Source: Escherichia phage vB_EcoM-S1P5QW. From it: 64,000 bases of DNA. Each line of letters begins with the position of its first letter. Within the stretch, counting starts at the first letter, position 1. Both the position numbers and the translations under genes were made by a program. Shown here one piece after another: positions 9,528 through 49,384 of this stretch. The DNA is taken from sequence record OL956808.1; one strand, written 5' to 3'. The notes below the pieces were generated by a model that saw nothing but the letters and a program-made list of their open reading frames with translations, had not been told where the DNA came from and ran no database searches.

Positions 9528-10337
9528 TTAGAAACGAGATGCGACTTTCGCATATACACTTACAATATCTTCTGCACCCTGTGCAGCTTTATCTTCTACA
9601 GCTTCAGTGACGAAATTCAGTCCGGCTGCTTCAGTATCAGGAGTATTTATACCCTCAGTAATAGTGCTTTCATCTTTATTAGACTTCTTCACCATTTCTA
9701 CGATGGCACTCAATTTACTTGAGAATGCATCTGAATAATCCATACCTTCGACCAGAGCAGAGACTTTTTCTTTTTGAGACTCAGTCAGATCTTTAGTACT
9801 TTCGCTCAATGCCACTTCACGCTGCACATAATTGATATATGCGTCACGCTTATTGAGTTCTTCGAACAGACGAGCTGATTCTTCTTTATGTTCTTGCAGC
9901 TCTTCTTCCATTTCAGCTACAACATCAACTGATTCTTCTGGAACAACAACGTTGTGTTCAACAAAGAGCTCTTTTAATCCACCAAGCATGGATTCAAACA
10001 GTTCGGCTTTGATGCCTTTATCAACTGCTAATTTATTTTCAGCGAGCCATTCTTTCGCAAGATGGTCAATGAATTTAGAAGCTTGCTCAGCGATTTTCTT
10101 CTCAGCTTTTTCTTCTGCTTCTTCTTTATTTTTTTCTACTTCTTCTTCTGCTTTTTCAGCAATTTTAGCGATATGAGATTCAGCTAATTTAACGGCGTGC
10201 TGCTTGACGGTAGCTTCGAATACAGTGCCGAAAGTTTCTTTTGCTTCCGGAGAAATATTAACTGATTCGAAAATACTATCAAGAGCAACGGAAGCATCAA
10301 TTTTCTGCGCTTCGGCAATCAGTTGTTCTTTAAGCAT
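9528..10337 (-). CDS. 22: prohead core scaffold protein gp22
   Basis: 269 aa, highly charged/helical; length and position as T4 gp22. Confidence 0.85.
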   Translation of the reverse strand: MLKEQLIAEAQKIDASVALDSIFESVNISPEAKETFGTVFEATVKQHAVKLAESHIAKIAEKAEEEVEKNKEEAEEKAEKKIAEQASKFIDHLAKEWLAENKLAVDKGIKAELFESMLGGLKELFVEHNVVVPEESVDVVAEMEEELQEHKEESARLFEELNKRDAYINYVQREVALSESTKDLTESQKEKVSALVEGMDYSDAFSSKLSAIVEMVKKSNKDESTITEGINTPDTEAAGLNFVTEAVEDKAAQGAEDIVSVYAKVASRF

Positions 10338-10364: not shown

Positions 10365-10372
10365 TATTTATA
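10365..10372 (-). promoter_or_regulatory. late promoter for gene 22
   Basis: Minus-strand TATAAATA 28 nt upstream of ATG. Confidence 0.6.
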
Positions 10373-11006
10373 ACGCTTTTTTCATGGCCTCTGCGAGAGC
10401 CATATAGGCGTCATCGGCACTTGTATCGGCTTCCGCCGTCTGTGATTCGGTAATTTCCTTAGGAGTTACCCATGCATCTGGAGCACTTGGACCCCATACT
10501 GCATCAACACCTACAGTTAATTTGAATCCTTCGTTTACGATACGATAACCTTTATTTGTGTCAGTCAATGAACCTAATCCACGAGAAGAAACTCCTGGAA
10601 TCCATCCGGCACGAATATTAGCTGCTAATTTATCTCCAGGACCATGGTCACCTTCAATAACACGAGCTCGTCCGTATACGTCATTTCCTTTCCACCACAT
10701 ATCTTCTATAATGATAGCGGCTTGCATCGGGTCAACATTAGCGCGTGGAGGATGATTTAATTCTCCGAGAGCTTGTTTAGTTAAAACTTGCTCATTAATA
10801 TAGTCTTTTACCGCTTTTTCTAATATACGTTTTGGATAAAGACGTTTATTTCTATTGACAACTTCCGCTTGCATGAATATTCCTTCGATGTATAAACCCG
10901 GTTTTAAACCTAAGTCTTTTCCATCATGAGATTCAAGCATTGGCACGCCATCAATAATTTCGCCAGGTTGACCCCAAGTTTCAATTAGTAATTGGGGTTC
11001 ATTCAT
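10368..11006 (-). CDS. 21: prohead core protease gp21
   Basis: 212 aa; length and position as T4 gp21. Confidence 0.88.
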   Translation of the reverse strand: MNEPQLLIETWGQPGEIIDGVPMLESHDGKDLGLKPGLYIEGIFMQAEVVNRNKRLYPKRILEKAVKDYINEQVLTKQALGELNHPPRANVDPMQAAIIIEDMWWKGNDVYGRARVIEGDHGPGDKLAANIRAGWIPGVSSRGLGSLTDTNKGYRIVNEGFKLTVGVDAVWGPSAPDAWVTPKEITESQTAEADTSADDAYMALAEAMKKAL

Positions 11007-40662: not shown

Positions 40663-40896
40663 ATGAAAACTTTCAAAGAGTTTATCGCTGAATCTTCTGA
40701 TGTAAAAGTTGAGTTTATTTACACCGGCAAGAAAGATAAAATGGGTGAAATGCCTCATGGAGTTCTTCGTGATGCATTAGATAATTTCGGTCAACTCGCC
40801 GCAGAAGATTACGGTGATAAAATTGTTGTTACTGGTCCTGCTGCAGTTATTGAAAAATGGGCAGCAGAAAATAAATCAATTTTTCGTAAAAAATAA
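40663..40896 (+). CDS. ipI: internal protein I-like, N-terminal capsid targeting sequence
   Basis: Track ORF starts at TTG inside the promoter; ATG at 40663 gives MKTFKEFIAE-SSDV..., matching the T4 IP capsid targeting sequence and gp21 cleavage context; adjacent to 57B as T4 ipI; start could be the ATG at 40651. Confidence 0.7.
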   Translation: MKTFKEFIAESSDVKVEFIYTGKKDKMGEMPHGVLRDALDNFGQLAAEDYGDKIVVTGPAAVIEKWAAENKSIFRKK

Positions 40897-41141: not shown

Positions 41142-41525
41142 ATGTATAAAGTGTACGCGGATTATCAGGCTAATCCATCTGAAAAGCCAGGTTGTCAAAT
41201 TGGATGGGCTCATGATACTTTGCTTGAAGCAGTAGATGCTGCTCAAAAATTAGGATATAAATATGTAGAGATTGTTCAACTACCATCAGGAAAAGTTATT
41301 ACTCTTGAAGAGTTCAATAATATTAAACCAAACTTTTTACTTTTTGCAGGTGATAATTATTATCCTCGTGGTGGATATGCTGATTTAATCGCGAAAGCCG
41401 CTACCGAAGATGAACTTCGTGATATTATTAAAGAAAATGAAAATAAACCGATGTATGGTTCTAATCGTTTTGACTGGTGGCAAATTGTAAATGCCCATAC
41501 TCATACTATTGTTGATGAAGGCTGA
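41142..41525 (+). CDS. hypothetical protein
   Basis: Track ORF starts at non-ATG 41103; ATG at 41142 with aggtg RBS gives 127 aa. Confidence 0.55.
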   Translation: MYKVYADYQANPSEKPGCQIGWAHDTLLEAVDAAQKLGYKYVEIVQLPSGKVITLEEFNNIKPNFLLFAGDNYYPRGGYADLIAKAATEDELRDIIKENENKPMYGSNRFDWWQIVNAHTHTIVDEG

Positions 41526-41527
41526 TA

Positions 41528-41815
41528 ATGATTCTTTATGCGAAAGTATCATCCATTGAAAATGGATATAAATATGATCAAGACGCGACTAAAGCCTTGA
41601 TTGATGATTATGGCATTTTAACATGTTTTGAAGTTGAAAAGGTTTACATTGACCGTTCATCTTCTCAGGTTAAATTAGTGAAGGAAGACCGTAAATTTAA
41701 TACAGTAAATTTTGATTTCTTTATTGAAACAGAAAAAGGTCCTCTTGAATATGATATTTTCAAGAATCCTTTGGGTCTTGAATGCATCGTAAATATGTAT
41801 TATCATAAATGGTAA
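41528..41815 (+). CDS. hypothetical protein
   Basis: 95 aa; start overlaps upstream stop (coupled). Confidence 0.5.
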   Translation: MILYAKVSSIENGYKYDQDATKALIDDYGILTCFEVEKVYIDRSSSQVKLVKEDRKFNTVNFDFFIETEKGPLEYDIFKNPLGLECIVNMYYHKW

Positions 41816-41887
41816 ATATGCTTTAAGAATTATTTGTTATTATTAACTCATACCGCACTGATTAATACCCTCTATCATCAAGGGTTC

Positions 41888-41911
41888 TTGCTTAAGAGCC
41901 TTTGTTAATAA
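41888..41911 (+). promoter_or_regulatory. candidate middle promoter for the tRNA cluster
   Basis: MotA-box-like tTGCTTaa followed by AT-rich -10-like taataat just upstream of tRNA-Gln. Confidence 0.35.
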
Positions 41912-41912
41912 T

Positions 41913-41985
41913 TGGGAATTAGCCAAGTTGGTAAGGCACTGGATTTTGATTCCAGGATGCAAAGGTTCGAGTCCTTTATTCCCAG
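41913..41985 (+). tRNA. tRNA-Gln (anticodon UUG); CCA not encoded
   Basis: Cloverleaf folded by hand: acceptor tgggaat/attccca, anticodon loop ttTTGat, T-loop ggttcgagtcc. Confidence 0.85.
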
Positions 41986-41986
41986 C

Positions 41987-42073
41987 GCGAGAATGGTCAA
42001 ATTGGTAAAGGCACAGCACTTAAAATGCTGCGGAATGATTTCCTTGTGGGTTCGAGTCCCACTTCTCGCACCA
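41987..42073 (+). tRNA. tRNA-Leu (anticodon UAA), type II
   Basis: Acceptor gcgagaa/ttctcgc, anticodon loop ctTAAaa, long variable arm, encoded CCA; abuts tRNA-Gln (dimeric precursor as in T4). Confidence 0.85.
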
Positions 42074-42078
42074 AATTT

Positions 42079-42152
<74 letters not shown>

Positions 42153-42198
42153 ATTTATGTCTCGTCGTGAGACGCTCAGTTCTTTATTAGGGACTGAT

Positions 42199-42807
42199 AT
42201 GCATTTTTATCTTTATAAAATAACAAATAAAATTAATAATAAAATTTATATTGGTGTGCATTCTACCGAAAATTTAGATGATGGATATATGGGTTCTGGT
42301 AAATTATTAAAAAGAGCCCAAGATAAATATGGTATAGAAAATTTTTCTAAAGAAATATTAGAGTATTTTGATGATAAAGAATCTATGCTTGAAGCCGAGA
42401 AAAATATTGTCACAGAAGAGTTTTTAAATAGACCAGATGTGTATAATTTAAAACTTGGAGGTGAAGGTGGATGGGATCATATAAATAATTATCCTATGAC
42501 AGATCAGCAACGCGAATTAATTTCATTGGGTGTTAAAAAGGCACATTCTAACGGAAAATTAAAAGGATGGTCTTCAAATGGATTAATGAAAAATGGCTTT
42601 GCTGGTAAAACTCATTCTCAAGAAGCTAAACGTAAAATAGCAAAAGCAAACGAAGCAAAAGTTTCTGCGAATGAAAGAAAAAGAAGAATAGAAATTTCTA
42701 AATTATATGATTTTTCTAAGCGGGGTGAATTATCTAAATATGCTAAGCATATTGGCGTAAGTCATACTCAAGCAAAAAGAATTCTAAATCAAATTAACAA
42801 TATATAA
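42199..42807 (+). CDS. segB: GIY-YIG homing endonuclease, SegB-like
   Basis: GIY-YIG signature FYLYKITNKINNKIYIGVH...YMGSG; track ORF (42157) begins just after tRNA-Gly, ATG at 42199 has an RBS; inside the tRNA cluster as T4 segB. Confidence 0.75.
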   Translation: MHFYLYKITNKINNKIYIGVHSTENLDDGYMGSGKLLKRAQDKYGIENFSKEILEYFDDKESMLEAEKNIVTEEFLNRPDVYNLKLGGEGGWDHINNYPMTDQQRELISLGVKKAHSNGKLKGWSSNGLMKNGFAGKTHSQEAKRKIAKANEAKVSANERKRRIEISKLYDFSKRGELSKYAKHIGVSHTQAKRILNQINNI

Positions 42808-42813
42808 ATATTT

Positions 42814-42903
42814 GGAGGCGTGGCAGAGTGGTTTAATGCACCGGTCTTGAAAACCGGCAGTCGCTCCGGCGACTCATAGGTTCAAATCCTATCGCCTCCG
42901 CCA
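42814..42903 (+). tRNA. tRNA-Ser (anticodon UGA), type II
   Basis: Acceptor ggaggcg/cgcctcc, anticodon loop ctTGAaa, long variable arm, encoded CCA. Confidence 0.85.
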
Positions 42904-42908
42904 GTTTT

Positions 42909-42984
42909 GCTGATTTAGCTCAGTAGGTAGAGCAACTCACTTGTAATGAGAAGGTCGGCGGTTCGATTCCGTCAATCAGCACCA
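42909..42984 (+). tRNA. tRNA-Thr (anticodon UGU)
   Basis: Acceptor gctgatt/aatcagc, anticodon loop ctTGTaa, T-loop ggttcgattcc, encoded CCA. Confidence 0.8.
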
Positions 42985-42985
42985 A

Positions 42986-43060
42986 GGCCCTGTAGCTGGA
43001 AGGTTCAAGCAAGCGACTCATAATCGCCAGATGGTGGTTCAATTCCACCCAGGGCCACCA
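42986..43060 (+). tRNA. tRNA with CAU anticodon (Ile2-type as in T4, or Met)
   Basis: Acceptor ggccctg/cagggcc, anticodon loop ctCATaa, encoded CCA. Confidence 0.75.
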
Positions 43061-43069
43061 AATTAATTT

Positions 43070-43156
43070 GGGGAGTTATCCCGTAGAGGTAGCGGTGTGG
43101 ACTGTAAATCCATTGTCATTGCGACTCGGGTGGTTCGACTCCATCACTCCCCACCA
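43070..43156 (+). tRNA. tRNA-Tyr (anticodon GUA), type II
   Basis: Acceptor ggggagt/actcccc, anticodon stem gtgga/tccat with loop ctGTAaa, long variable arm resembling E. coli tRNA-Tyr, encoded CCA. Confidence 0.7.
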
Positions 43157-43160
43157 ATTT

Positions 43161-43235
43161 GGATGTGTAGCTCAATGGCAGAGCGATCGCCTGTTAAGCG
43201 ATTGGTTATAGGTTCGAATCCTATCACTTCCGCCA
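43161..43235 (+). tRNA. tRNA-Asn (anticodon GUU)
   Basis: Anticodon stem atcgc/gcgat with loop ctGTTaa, T-loop ggttcgaatcc, encoded CCA; one U-U mismatch in acceptor stem. Confidence 0.7.
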
Positions 43236-43349
43236 AATTTGTGACAACTGTCACATTAATATCTACTTGACGCGATTATCGGGGTTGAACTGATCACTCT
43301 TCTCTTAATTTCGTGTGAAGACATCTTGATTGTTGGAGTAGGTATTAAT

Positions 43350-43425
43350 GTGGCCGTAGTTCAGTTGGTAGAACTCGAGATTGTGATTCTCGTAGTCATG
43401 GGTTCGACTCCCATCGGTCACCCCA
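43350..43425 (+). tRNA. tRNA-His (anticodon GUG)
   Basis: D-stem gttc/gaac, anticodon stem cgaga/tctcg with loop ttGTGat, T-loop ggttcgactcc, discriminator C and CCA; no encoded G-1. Confidence 0.7.
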
Positions 43426-43429
43426 ATTA

Positions 43430-43505
43430 CGGGGCATAGCTCAGAAGGAAGAGCAAGGACCTTCTAAGTCCTGGGTCGTAGGTTCGATCCCTACTGCCTC
43501 GACCA
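43430..43505 (+). tRNA. tRNA-Arg (anticodon UCU)
   Basis: Acceptor cggggca/tgcctcg, anticodon stem aggac/gtcct with loop ctTCTaa, encoded CCA. Confidence 0.8.
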
Positions 43506-43850
43506 AACAAGAAGCCGGGTCGCTACCGGTAAGTCGTCGGACTGATGTTCCCTGGGTAAGGACTGGCATTAACAAATCTTTACGATCGGTTAATGCCCCC
43601 TTACATCACAGCAGAAACGGCGCACCGAATTATCGATTCGAGGAAATATCTTTGCCGTAAGCCGAGTAGCGTTTTTGACGGAACGTTCGGATATGGTCGA
43701 GATATGGCCTTTTAAAATATTAAGTAGCGTCAACTGCTTAATAACCGGGTTCGAATCCCGGCGTTTCGTACAAACACTTGCCTTAGCAGGTGGAACCCCG
43801 ACAAGGTTGCCGCAAGGCTTAGCCCCGACCGAAAGGTTGGGGCTTTTTAG
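43506..43850 (+). ncRNA. stable small RNA region (T4 RNA C/D-like) ending at an intrinsic terminator
   Basis: 345 nt without a credible ORF right after tRNA-Arg; tRNA-like T-arm ccgggttcgaatcccgg at 43745-43763; ends with hairpin plus T-run 43822-43850; T4 has two stable RNAs here (recalled). Confidence 0.4.
43822..43850 (+). terminator. intrinsic terminator (copy 1)
   Basis: agccccgaccgaaaggttggggc + TTTTT; near-identical copy at 44377. Confidence 0.7.
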
Positions 43851-43894
43851 TATAAATAAGTATATTAAAACCACGAATTAAAACAGGAAATAAG

Positions 43895-44368
43895 ATGAAA
43901 TCATATGCTCAATTTTTAAATGAAGCGGTGTTAAATGAAGCATCTAGCACCGAAATTCAAGCCGTTGCAAAAGCTGCCATTGCCGCGGGTAAATATTCCT
44001 ATAAAGATGCTTCTGATGAGTCACGATTCCAATTTGCTCGCGATATGAAAGCGGAAGGATTTACAGGGAATGCAGTTAGTATGGCCTGGAAAAGTCTAGT
44101 TGCTACTGGAGCTGCTTTTGCAAAGGCTTCGGGTAAACCTGCTCCTAAAGCAGATCCTAAAGTCACACAAGAGAAAAATATTGTTAAAGGAATTATCTCC
44201 AAATATGAAGCTATCCTTAAAGAGCTTTTAGTAATCAAAACTGAAGGCCAAAAACTGGCTCGTGCTTATAGTTTCAAAGATAACCCACATGCTCACTCTC
44301 TTGAGTATGTTGAAGACATCCAAAAAATTATTAAAGACCGCATTTGGTCTGCTAAACAAATCAAATAA
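43895..44368 (+). CDS. candidate packaged internal protein with CTS-like N-terminus
   Basis: 157 aa; N-terminus MKSYAQFLNE-A resembles T4 CTS MKTYQEFIAE; Ala/Lys-rich; flanked by near-identical terminators. Confidence 0.55.
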   Translation: MKSYAQFLNEAVLNEASSTEIQAVAKAAIAAGKYSYKDASDESRFQFARDMKAEGFTGNAVSMAWKSLVATGAAFAKASGKPAPKADPKVTQEKNIVKGIISKYEAILKELLVIKTEGQKLARAYSFKDNPHAHSLEYVEDIQKIIKDRIWSAKQIK

Positions 44369-44376
44369 CATTCTTA

Positions 44377-44403
44377 GCCCCGACAGAAAGGTTGGGGCTT
44401 TTT
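44377..44403 (+). terminator. intrinsic terminator (copy 2)
   Basis: agccccgacagaaaggttggggc + TTTTT after the CTS-like gene. Confidence 0.7.
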
Positions 44404-44536
44404 GGCATCTAGGCTTTTCCGGGCCTCTCTAGGCATCATTTAGTTTATATCCTTTATAATATATTATCCTATCCTTTGATTTCCCCTCCCTGCCCTAGAA
44501 TTCCCTAAAACTTTTTAAAAATTTTTTCACAAAACT

Positions 44537-44568
44537 GTTTACATCCCTGTTCTTCCATGGTACTATAT
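44537..44568 (+). promoter_or_regulatory. early promoter
   Basis: GTTTAC, -10 tggTACTATat; shares tggtactata(c/t)aactatcaact with promoters at 59485 and 60924. Confidence 0.55.
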
Positions 44569-44609
44569 AACTATCAACTACTGATACAGAAAACAACTTG
44601 GAGAACGAA

Positions 44610-44873
44610 ATGGATAATTACGGCGAACTGTTCAACTTCTTTATGAAATGTGTTTCAGAAGATTTCGGTCGTACAGTGAATGATATTAAAGTTATCGGTC
44701 CTGATCATCCGATGTTTGAAACTTATGCGGTAATGGGCAATGAAGACGGTCAGTGGTATACTGTAAAGGTTGTGATTAACATGTTCACTGCTGAAAGTTA
44801 TGTTAAACTGTCTTCTAAAGTTTACCATGATAACGACGAAATCGCAGAAGAATATTTCAATAATATGAAATAA
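44610..44873 (+). CDS. hypothetical protein (e.8-like position)
   Basis: Track ORF starts at TTG 44598; ATG at 44610 with ggag RBS gives 87 aa; downstream of early promoter. Confidence 0.5.
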   Translation: MDNYGELFNFFMKCVSEDFGRTVNDIKVIGPDHPMFETYAVMGNEDGQWYTVKVVINMFTAESYVKLSSKVYHDNDEIAEEYFNNMK

Positions 44874-44883
44874 GTTTACATAG

Positions 44884-44913
44884 GCTCATGATTGAGATAT
44901 TATGAGCCTATAA
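44884..44913 (+). promoter_or_regulatory. early promoter with stem-loop
   Basis: GTTTAC; 10-bp inverted repeat ataggctcat/atgagcctat brackets the -10 gaTATTAT. Confidence 0.55.
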
Positions 44914-44929
44914 CTTTGAGGAGAACATA

Positions 44930-45328
44930 ATGAATATTAAAGATAAAGAAATGCGAGAGTTATATAATTCATTAACACCCGAACAACAAAAATCTGTTAA
45001 AGAATTAGAGAAAGCTCTTAGTTTAAGCTTGACAAAAACTGATTGGGTCGCCGTGTATGAAGAAAAAATGAGATCGGAAAATGAAGCTGTCGAGAGAAAT
45101 GAATGGATTGTAGACACCAAGATTGGTGATGATGGATGTTCTGTTGAGGTGTCAGCTGTAGTTAAAGGTACTCATGGCGAAGAATCATGGGGTTGGCATA
45201 ATGAGGCAAACAAATATATTGTTCTCTCAACGTCAAAAACTTATGGTCAAAAGGTTCCTGTATCCAAAGCTATTATTAAGCAAGCTCAATGGGAAGCCAA
45301 TGAAATCTGCCTCGCAAAAATGAAATAA
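44930..45328 (+). CDS. hypothetical protein
   Basis: 132 aa; gaggag RBS; own early promoter. Confidence 0.55.
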   Translation: MNIKDKEMRELYNSLTPEQQKSVKELEKALSLSLTKTDWVAVYEEKMRSENEAVERNEWIVDTKIGDDGCSVEVSAVVKGTHGEESWGWHNEANKYIVLSTSKTYGQKVPVSKAIIKQAQWEANEICLAKMK

Positions 45329-48910: not shown

Positions 48911-49384
48911 ATGAAAACATATCAAGAATTTATTACTGAAGCAGCTATTAATTCTCAAATTATTGCTGAATCTTTTACTGATCTTTTGAAATTTAAAAAA
49001 GGACAGAAAATCACTGCTGTACTGGATGATGGTACAGAAGTTGAGATGGATGTACAGGGATATAATTATGCAGTAGATGGAAAACTGTATAATAAATCTC
49101 ATGCTAAATTTGATTCATTTGACGACTTTGTTAATACAGTTGAAGATGAAAAAACTCGTCGATCCATTGCAACAGGTGATGCTAAGGTTCTTATGGCACA
49201 TGGTCATGAACGTATTCGCGCTAAACAGAATAAAATGGGTGAAGATAATTTTGCATTAGTTGGTTATCAATCTGGTAAACAAACTTATGGCTATCAACGT
49301 ACTGCTACCATGTATAACAAAAATGGTAAAATTGCCTTTGTGAATAGTAAAGGTTCTATTCAGTACGTTAAATCGTTCAAATAA
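48911..49384 (+). CDS. internal protein (IPIII-like) with capsid targeting sequence
   Basis: 157 aa; N-terminus MKTYQEFITE-AA matches T4 CTS; adjacent to e as T4 ipIII; aagga RBS. Confidence 0.6.
   Translation: MKTYQEFITEAAINSQIIAESFTDLLKFKKGQKITAVLDDGTEVEMDVQGYNYAVDGKLYNKSHAKFDSFDDFVNTVEDEKTRRSIATGDAKVLMAHGHERIRAKQNKMGEDNFALVGYQSGKQTYGYQRTATMYNKNGKIAFVNSKGSIQYVKSFK

Follow-up and report, generated by a model that had tools for sequence, protein, structure and literature searches.

A gene between rnaC and e.8 of a T4-like phage carries a capsid targeting sequence and probably encodes an internal head protein

Escherichia phage vB_EcoM-S1P5QW (OL956808.1) belongs to the T4-like phages of the genus Tequatrovirus and was analysed over a stretch of 64,000 nucleotides, referred to as the window. 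Its best DNA matches, 97–98% identical, are the Escherichia phages JLBYU31, AV122, and TadeuszReichstein, and the plus strand of the window corresponds to the minus strand of T4. The gene considered here is an open reading frame (ORF) for a protein of 157 residues (43895–44368, plus strand; start MKSYAQFLNEAVLNEASS), which lies between rnaC and e.8 and belongs to PHROG 2280, a family of unknown function. It is preceded by 57A, 57B, the gene at the ipI locus, trna.4, trna.3, and trna.2, the tRNA cluster (which includes a gene for a GIY-YIG homing endonuclease), rnaD, and rnaC. It is followed by e.8, e.7, and e.6 and, further on, by nudE, e, and the gene at the ipIII locus.

The gene is bracketed by two copies of one terminator. 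Copy 1, the left repeat copy (43818–43853, plus strand), features a hairpin at 43821–43844 and a run of five T at 43844–43848 and ends the tRNA/rnaC transcription unit. Copy 2, the right repeat copy (44373–44408, plus strand; hairpin 44376–44399), is positioned to end the late transcript of the gene ahead of the early promoter of e.8. The copies form a direct repeat with 92% identity at a spacing of 555 nt. The initial annotation had proposed such a bracketing, and the near-identical pair is real; the repeat, however, starts 1–2 nt earlier than given there and measures 36 nt rather than 30. Its 24-nt hairpin core AGCCCCGACNGAAAGGTTGGGGCT occurs at exactly two sites in the 64 kb even at three mismatches, compared with 0.00 expected from 100 shuffles, which rules out a chance event. 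Copy 1 folds into 10 pairs with a GAAA loop at −20.7 kcal/mol (z −3.5), and copy 2—in which a C>A change removes the closing pair—folds at −16.3 kcal/mol (z −2.7); a run of five T follows each hairpin. A simple terminator scan called copy 1 only, copy 2 being missed because of the 4 T in its scored tail window. The Rfam scan of 41500–45000 returned tRNAs only and no match at either terminator.

A predicted late promoter box of the T4 type, TATAAATA (43851–43858, plus strand), lies 36 nt upstream of the ATG and begins 3 nt past the T-run of copy 1. TATAAATA is the consensus of T4 late promoters and is found 11 times on the plus strand of the 64 kb. The Shine-Dalgarno sequence AGGAA (43885–43889, plus strand) precedes the ATG by 5 nt and is kept in orthologues. 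The box itself is kept as TATAAATA upstream of the orthologues of Tequatrovirus, Dhakavirus, and Jiaodavirus and reads AATAAATA in Mosigvirus and in ABTNLsp5. The record of Yersinia phage fPS-65, which was annotated independently, features a terminator, a predicted late promoter, the gene, and a terminator at the equivalent positions. As judged by these signals, the region is a self-contained late transcription unit of 555 bp that consists of a putative late promoter, a Shine-Dalgarno sequence, the ORF, and a terminator. The two near-identical terminators shield this unit on its upstream side from the tRNA/rnaC operon and on its downstream side from the early gene e.8 and, in addition, supply homology for recombination.

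The N-terminus of the protein reads MKSYAQFLNE/AVLNE/A (43895–43939, plus strand; slashes mark predicted cleavage sites of the prohead protease gp21). According to a review of Black's work on T4, the N-terminal 10 residues of IPIII are enough for packaging; residues 4 and 7—an aromatic residue at 4 and Phe7—are the main determinants of targeting, and processing depends on residues 8 and 10, with gp21 cleaving after L/I-X-E (PMC9026906). The ORF features Y4 and F7 at the targeting positions and L8-N9-E10 as the predicted gp21 site, followed by Ala, so that all four mapped positions match. The resemblance to the capsid targeting sequence (CTS) MKTYQEFIAE of T4 that had been pointed out for this ORF is borne out: the reference stems from T4 ipII and ipIII, whose products both begin MKTYQEFIAE/A, whereas T4 IPI begins MKTFKEFTSTTTPVSTITE/A. 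From its sequence, the protein is taken to carry a bona fide CTS-type N-terminus. A second L-N-E/A site at residues 13–15 arises from a 15-bp tandem duplication (TTAAATGAAGC plus 4 nt, 43916–43941), which is absent from the Mosigvirus and Jiaodavirus orthologues. A third L/I-X-E motif, L-K-E/L at residues 108–110 (44216–44224), is found inside the C-terminal helical hairpin of the predicted structure; if accessible, a gp21 cut at this site could yield fragments of ~10 kDa and ~5 kDa.

The motif is rare in the window. Three of the 588 Met-initiated frames of at least 40 residues start with the pattern M..[YF]..F[LI].E, compared with about 0.05 expected from the overall frequency of the motif, the remaining two being genes located at the ipI and ipIII loci, whose PHROGs are internal virion proteins. 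The gene at the ipI locus (40663–40896, plus strand) is of the IpVI type and encodes 77 residues starting MKTFKEFIAE; in the ORF list its start is placed at a TTG further upstream (40597), and the CTS reads from the ATG at 40663. At the ipIII locus, the gene (48911–49384, plus strand) is of the IpIV type and encodes 157 residues starting MKTYQEFITE, with the Pfam domain DUF7412. Both agree with the annotated IpVI and IpIV of Yersinia phage PST in their first 24 residues and in length. Among the homologues of the protein at the rnaC–e.8 junction, the tag pattern aromatic-x-x-F-L/V-x-E is present in every full-length member—for example MLKFNEFLAE, MINFSDFLNE, and MKSFSSFLNE—while the mature part falls to 40% identity or less. 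The tag is thus kept while the rest diverges strongly, which indicates selection on the tag itself.

Evidence at the protein level comes from Yersinia phage fD1 (HE956711), whose g140 is a 98%-identical orthologue at the same locus. Gp140 of fD1 was detected using liquid chromatography–tandem mass spectrometry (LC-MS/MS) at a strict threshold in virions purified by ultracentrifugation (PMC8309999 Table S3), and the products of the adjacent genes g138 and g139 (e.8) were not detected in the same virions (PMC8309999). The fD1 orthologue is hence made and copurifies with virions, which is supportive of packaging but not decisive for it. The paper on fPS-2, fPS-65, as well as fPS-90 contains no proteome, and a literature search for fHe-Yen9-01 found no proteomic study.

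Taken together, we consider it probable that the region encodes an internal head protein (Ip) of the T4 type, and its mode of action would be as follows. Late transcription would start from TATAAATA at 43851 and end at 44376–44403, as predicted from sequence and conservation. MKSYAQFLNE would then act as the CTS and recruit the protein into the prohead core of gp22, as its match to the mapped determinants suggests. Cleavage by gp21 after E10, E15, or both (L-N-E/A) would leave a basic protein of ~15.5–16 kDa in the head together with the DNA, with a predicted mature N-terminus of AVLNEASSTEIQAVAK or ASSTEIQAVAK; retention in the head is supported for the 98%-identical orthologue of fD1. By analogy with Ip1, Ip2, and Ip3, the protein would be ejected with the DNA and act before any phage gene is expressed. 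The genes for gp21, gp22, and gp23 are all encoded within the window. The prohead core protease gp21 (10368–11006, minus strand; Pfam Peptidase_S77, E = 1.5e-111) is the enzyme expected to take off the CTS, and the core formed with the scaffolding protein gp22 (9528–10337, minus strand; Pfam T4_CASP, E = 1.2e-89) is the structure that recruits CTS-tagged proteins.

The predicted mature protein, derived from a precursor of 17.3 kDa, comprises 142–147 residues with a mass of 15.5–16.0 kDa, 24 Lys and Arg residues, and an isoelectric point (pI) of about 9.5, close to that of IPII* (9.56) and IPIII* (9.65). The AlphaFold2 model (mean predicted local distance difference test score 72) features an N-terminal helix of low confidence, a confident helical domain at residues 18–75, a linker rich in Pro and Lys, and, at residues 88–155, a C-terminal helical hairpin. 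As judged by tblastn, 511 phage records carry the protein, at 90–100% identity in Tequatrovirus, about 75–81% in Mosigvirus and Dhakavirus, and about 50% in Klebsiella phages of the genus Jiaodavirus, where the match covers the N-terminal half. A profile search against 1.84 billion cluster representatives returned 13 proteins, all of one family. The distant profile match P0075 was traced to T4-like phages whose hosts include Serratia, Cronobacter, and Klebsiella, and the match P0076 has no counterpart in the phage collection. A single UniRef entry, a homologue from a Klebsiella phage, bears the name "Internal head protein". The ratio of nonsynonymous to synonymous substitution rates (dN/dS) is 0.09–0.15 against the orthologues and 0.29 against that of Jiaodavirus. 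The ORF of 157 residues starting MKSYAQFLNE-A, as called in the initial annotation, is in this way borne out; a spurious frame is ruled out by the dN/dS of about 0.1 together with the detection of the fD1 orthologue by mass spectrometry.

Within the Ip class, a role of the injected protein against host defence may be considered, although with somewhat less than even confidence; the model is Ip1, Ip2, and Ip3 of T4, each of which inhibits a distinct GmrSD type IV nuclease, as found in a 2025 study (PMC12373910). Several observations speak against the internal-protein reading or against this role. The fD1 preparation also held 113 phage proteins—NudE, DenV, and lysozyme included—and 672 host proteins (PMC8309999), and the detection of Gp140 is weakly specific because of this copurification. 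For the window phage's own protein, packaging, processing, and ejection are predictions from sequence and analogy. More than 500 phage records annotate the gene throughout as "hypothetical protein". BLASTP of residues 16–157 against a database of 10 sequences, including IPI, IPII, and IPIII of T4 and IpIII–VI of PST, gave a best E of 0.96, and the mature part shares no PHROG or Pfam family with Ip1, Ip2, or Ip3. The Pfam search of the ORF returned subthreshold noise only and no domain, and the structural neighbours in BFVD and the PDB were not informative. The anti-defence role is thus argued entirely by analogy, because the mature part lacks Ip similarity, a Pfam domain, and an informative structural neighbour. 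Finally, purifying selection on the family across genera is strong, and the hypervariability expected of an inhibitor in an arms race is absent.

These last properties lead to the main rival explanation, which we regard as rather unlikely: that the protein is packaged via its CTS but serves a structural or DNA-associated function—neutralising charge or organising the genome—or forms an accessory part of the prohead core, and takes no part in counter-defence. The basic mature protein with its many Lys and Arg residues and its Lys/Pro-rich linker would suit such a function, the helical hairpin architecture is generic, and a dN/dS of about 0.1 with synteny over four genera is more in line with a housekeeping component of the head than with a fast-evolving inhibitor. 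A structural role is at odds with the dispensability of the gene, which is absent from T4, T2, and PST; moreover, all three characterised Ips of T4 specifically inhibit GmrSD enzymes (PMC12373910), although a basic charge is shared by two of them.

Compared with IPII and IPIII of T4, the 157-residue protein features the same 10-residue CTS layout with identical residue classes at the functional positions 4, 7, 8, and 10, and all are small basic proteins when mature (pI 9.5–9.65). They are likewise nonessential, vary between phages, and would use the same gp21/gp22 machinery. The protein differs from them beyond residues 1–16 and belongs to PHROG 2280, whereas IPII and IPIII belong to families of internal virion proteins; their genes lie at the e–denV locus, whereas the 157-aa gene lies at the rnaC–e.8 junction. 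A comparison with ipII/ipIII and the other named Ips had been suggested as a check, and it confirms the shared CTS, but the similarity ends at residue 14–16. IPI, which in its mature form IPI* inhibits the GmrSD of E. coli CT596, is an injected cargo with a cleavable N-terminal propeptide and exemplifies the route proposed for the 157-residue protein. IPI has a propeptide of 19 residues (MKTFKEFTSTTTPVSTITE/A) and a compact α/β fold of 76 residues, whereas for the protein studied here two domains, entirely helical, and about 145 residues are predicted.

Further Ips of T-even relatives, Ip4–Ip10 or IpIV–IpVI, were reportedly recognised by their CTS only and differ from phage to phage, a description attributed to Repoila et al. 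in 1994. The 157-residue protein resembles them in being recognised by its CTS, and the window itself contains the IpVI-type and IpIV-type genes described above. The named Ips differ from it in that all of them are encoded at two loci, and the 157-residue family occupies a third site outside these customary loci. These two Ip loci of the literature are 57B–trna.4 and e–denV, and ip1–10 have been tested; the targets inhibited by Ip2 and Ip3 are the GmrSD enzymes of ECOR21 and ECOR17, and five active GmrSD groups are without a known Ip inhibitor (Silas et al., PMC12373910). In the part of the supplementary material of that study that was searched, the N-terminal sequence of the 157-residue family had no match.

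A second gene with a CTS occurs at the same junction in other phages. It follows terminator copy 2 in CrRp10, fPS-65, and HMD-9 and encodes a protein of 187 residues, which is present in 165 phage records overall (positions 1760–2323 of the CrRp10 locus, L003, and 617–1180 of the Killian locus, L015). The 187-residue protein, RB14ORF136, starts MKTYAEFLTE/A in CrRp10, RB14, HP3, and Killian and thus also carries a CTS. It resembles the 157-residue protein in locus, CTS type, membership in PHROG 2280, and basic mature form; it differs in that BLASTP similarity between the two is essentially restricted to the CTS, in that its gene ends with a different hairpin, after which the common sequence resumes at GGGCTTTTT/GGCATCTAGG, and in that it is absent from the window. 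Among the matches listed, 40 of 40 are named "hypothetical". One source names a member of the 187-residue cluster "isopenicillin N synthase-like dioxygenase", apparently a misannotation. The 187-residue protein is a candidate for a second unrecognised Ip at the rnaC–e.8 locus.

The junction varies between phages. The flanks in T4 (NC_000866) share more than 90% identity with the window, and a single terminator copy lies between rnaC and e.8; exactly 555 bp, corresponding to the ORF and one repeat copy, are missing, so that the indel is bounded by the terminator repeat. The late promoter box lies inside this 555-bp cassette, and the empty site of T4 is without it. The site is likewise empty, with a single terminator copy, in T2 and in PST. 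The flanks of the locus match 774 records, compared with the 511 phage records that contain the protein, and the gene is nonessential by this distribution. Four allelic states are found: empty (T4, T2, and PST), the 157-aa gene only (the window, JLBYU31, and fD1), both genes (CrRp10, fPS-65, and HMD-9), and the 187-aa gene only (Killian). The breakpoints among these states map to the 3′ halves of the terminators. The two terminator copies appear to covary: both read CCCCGAC(C/A) in Tequatrovirus (CCCCGACC) and both CCCCTTCC in Mosigvirus (43821–43844 and 44376–44399 compared with L009), and the downstream copy of HMD-9 (L011) features a compensatory change from C–G to T–A. This covariation suggests homogenisation between the copies or selection for the hairpin.

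Orthologues are located directly past the tRNA cluster in Mosigvirus (L009), Dhakavirus (L013 and L014), and Jiaodavirus (L010), rnaC itself being seen only in Mosigvirus among these loci of other genera. In each syntenic orthologue, a terminator abutting TATAAATA or AATAAATA precedes the gene and a terminator follows it, and the junction GGGGCTTTTTAGTATAAATA is identical between the Klebsiella phage and the window. The synonymous divergence (dS) of the ORF from its Mosigvirus and Jiaodavirus orthologues amounts to 1.43 and 1.95, respectively, compared with 1.38 and 1.80 for the neighbouring e.6. The match in dS and the synteny indicate inheritance together with the neighbourhood and, hence, ancestral presence. 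The most economical reading of these sequences is that the gene is probably ancestral at this position in the Tevenvirinae and was lost in T4, T2, and PST by recombination between the terminator copies. The earlier description of the region as a self-contained insertion is therefore retained in part: the cassette is self-contained, and against T4 the boundaries of what is present or absent coincide exactly with the terminator repeat, but syntenic orthologues in four genera with a dS like that of e.6 argue against an insertion.

The alternative of a recently acquired mobile cassette, which would have inserted at the rnaC terminator and duplicated it, is improbable in our view. It would account for the clean indel against T4 bounded by the repeat, for a promoter and terminator of the cassette's own, and for the gain and loss of the 187-residue CTS cassette at this junction, all four combinations being found. 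Shuffling mediated by PeSL motifs and integration of minicircles have, moreover, been proposed for T4-like phages (PMC4122927). Recent acquisition is, however, contradicted by the same position and the same terminator/late-promoter junction in Mosigvirus, Dhakavirus, and Jiaodavirus and by the agreement of dS with the flanking e.6, and the family, with 13 representatives among 1.84 billion, is confined to T4-like phages. The likeness to PeSL cassettes (Arbiol 2010; Comeau 2014) consists of stem-loop/promoter motifs that flank variable genes and of indel breakpoints within these motifs. Breakpoints of this type are present here, the 555-bp indel being bounded by the terminator repeat and the 187-residue cassette at GGGCTTTTT. 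The e.8 early promoter (44538–44566, plus strand), a sigma-70-type promoter TTTACA-N17-TACTAT that the fPS-65 record lists as "predicted early promoter", fits the PeSL promoter consensus TTTACW-N17-TAYWAT of PST and T4 (PMC4122927) and, together with copy 2, resembles a terminator/promoter pair. In contrast to PeSL, only the terminator is repeated here, and the promoter inside the unit is late (TATAAATA) and not early sigma-70; the early promoter lies ~135 nt downstream of the stem-loop of copy 2 and not immediately after it, and the promoter that abuts copy 1 is late.

It is very unlikely that the protein is a cytoplasmic late protein that is not packaged, with a CTS-like N-terminus left over, for example, from a 5′ end shared with ip genes by recombination, and that its detection in fD1 reflects contamination: the fD1 preparation was indeed rich in nonstructural phage proteins and host proteins, but the motif is kept at all four functional positions in homologues that have diverged beyond BLAST recognition elsewhere, the three CTS genes of the window show at the DNA level no recent copying of their 5′ ends from one another, which points to selection on the peptide, and the products of the neighbouring genes went undetected in the fD1 virions.

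On the reading as an internal head protein, the 157-aa gene is an essentially unannotated member of the known Ip class and lies at a junction that had not been listed among the Ip loci. A farther-reading interpretation, which is doubtful, holds that the rnaC–e.8 junction is a third, unrecognised Ip locus, at which cargo units of 157 and 187 residues are exchanged via the terminator, and that the conserved 157-residue protein, once injected, inhibits a host defence without known phage countermeasure. The target could in that case be, for example, a GmrSD group that Ip1–10 leave uninhibited, and its absence from T4, T2, and PST would explain why the gene was overlooked. Among phage counter-defence factors, internal proteins alone are in place at the moment of DNA entry into the cell; with several active GmrSD groups being without a known inhibitor, the families of 157 and 187 residues are concrete candidates. 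They occur in hundreds of therapeutic-type isolates of Tequatrovirus and Mosigvirus, and their absence from T4, T2, and PST makes gain-of-function tests simple. Ip genes beyond the two usual loci can be found by scanning for the CTS, and the four allelic states are a clean natural example of terminator-mediated cassette exchange.

The upstream context of the cassette is formed by the homologues of rnaD and rnaC (43507–43769, plus strand), the stable RNAs of species 2 and species 1 of T4, which are more than 90% identical to T4 in pairwise alignment and close the tRNA cluster. A 94-nt "tRNA-Lys (ttt)" called by ARAGORN at 43678–43771 on the plus strand falls inside the rnaC homologue and is not reported by the tRNA model of Rfam; it is probably a tRNA-like fold of rnaC and not a functional tRNA. 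Within the cluster, a seg-like homing endonuclease with GIY-YIG and NUMOD3 domains (42157–42807, plus strand) lies between tRNA-Gly (42079–42152) and tRNA-Ser (42814–42903). It occupies the position of tRNA-Pro of T4 and JLBYU31, and tRNA-Pro was not detected in the window; segB of T4 is found at another position of the cluster, between tRNA-Ile and tRNA-Arg. Between tRNA-Arg and rnaD, the nearest relatives AV122, TadeuszReichstein, T2, and CrRp10 contain ~360 extra bp that are absent from the window (junction 43505/43506) and from T4. This segment encodes a protein of 116 residues of PHROG 3355, function unknown (L003 423–773, L005 424–774), and the gene represents a second presence/absence polymorphism within a few hundred bp of the 157-residue ORF.

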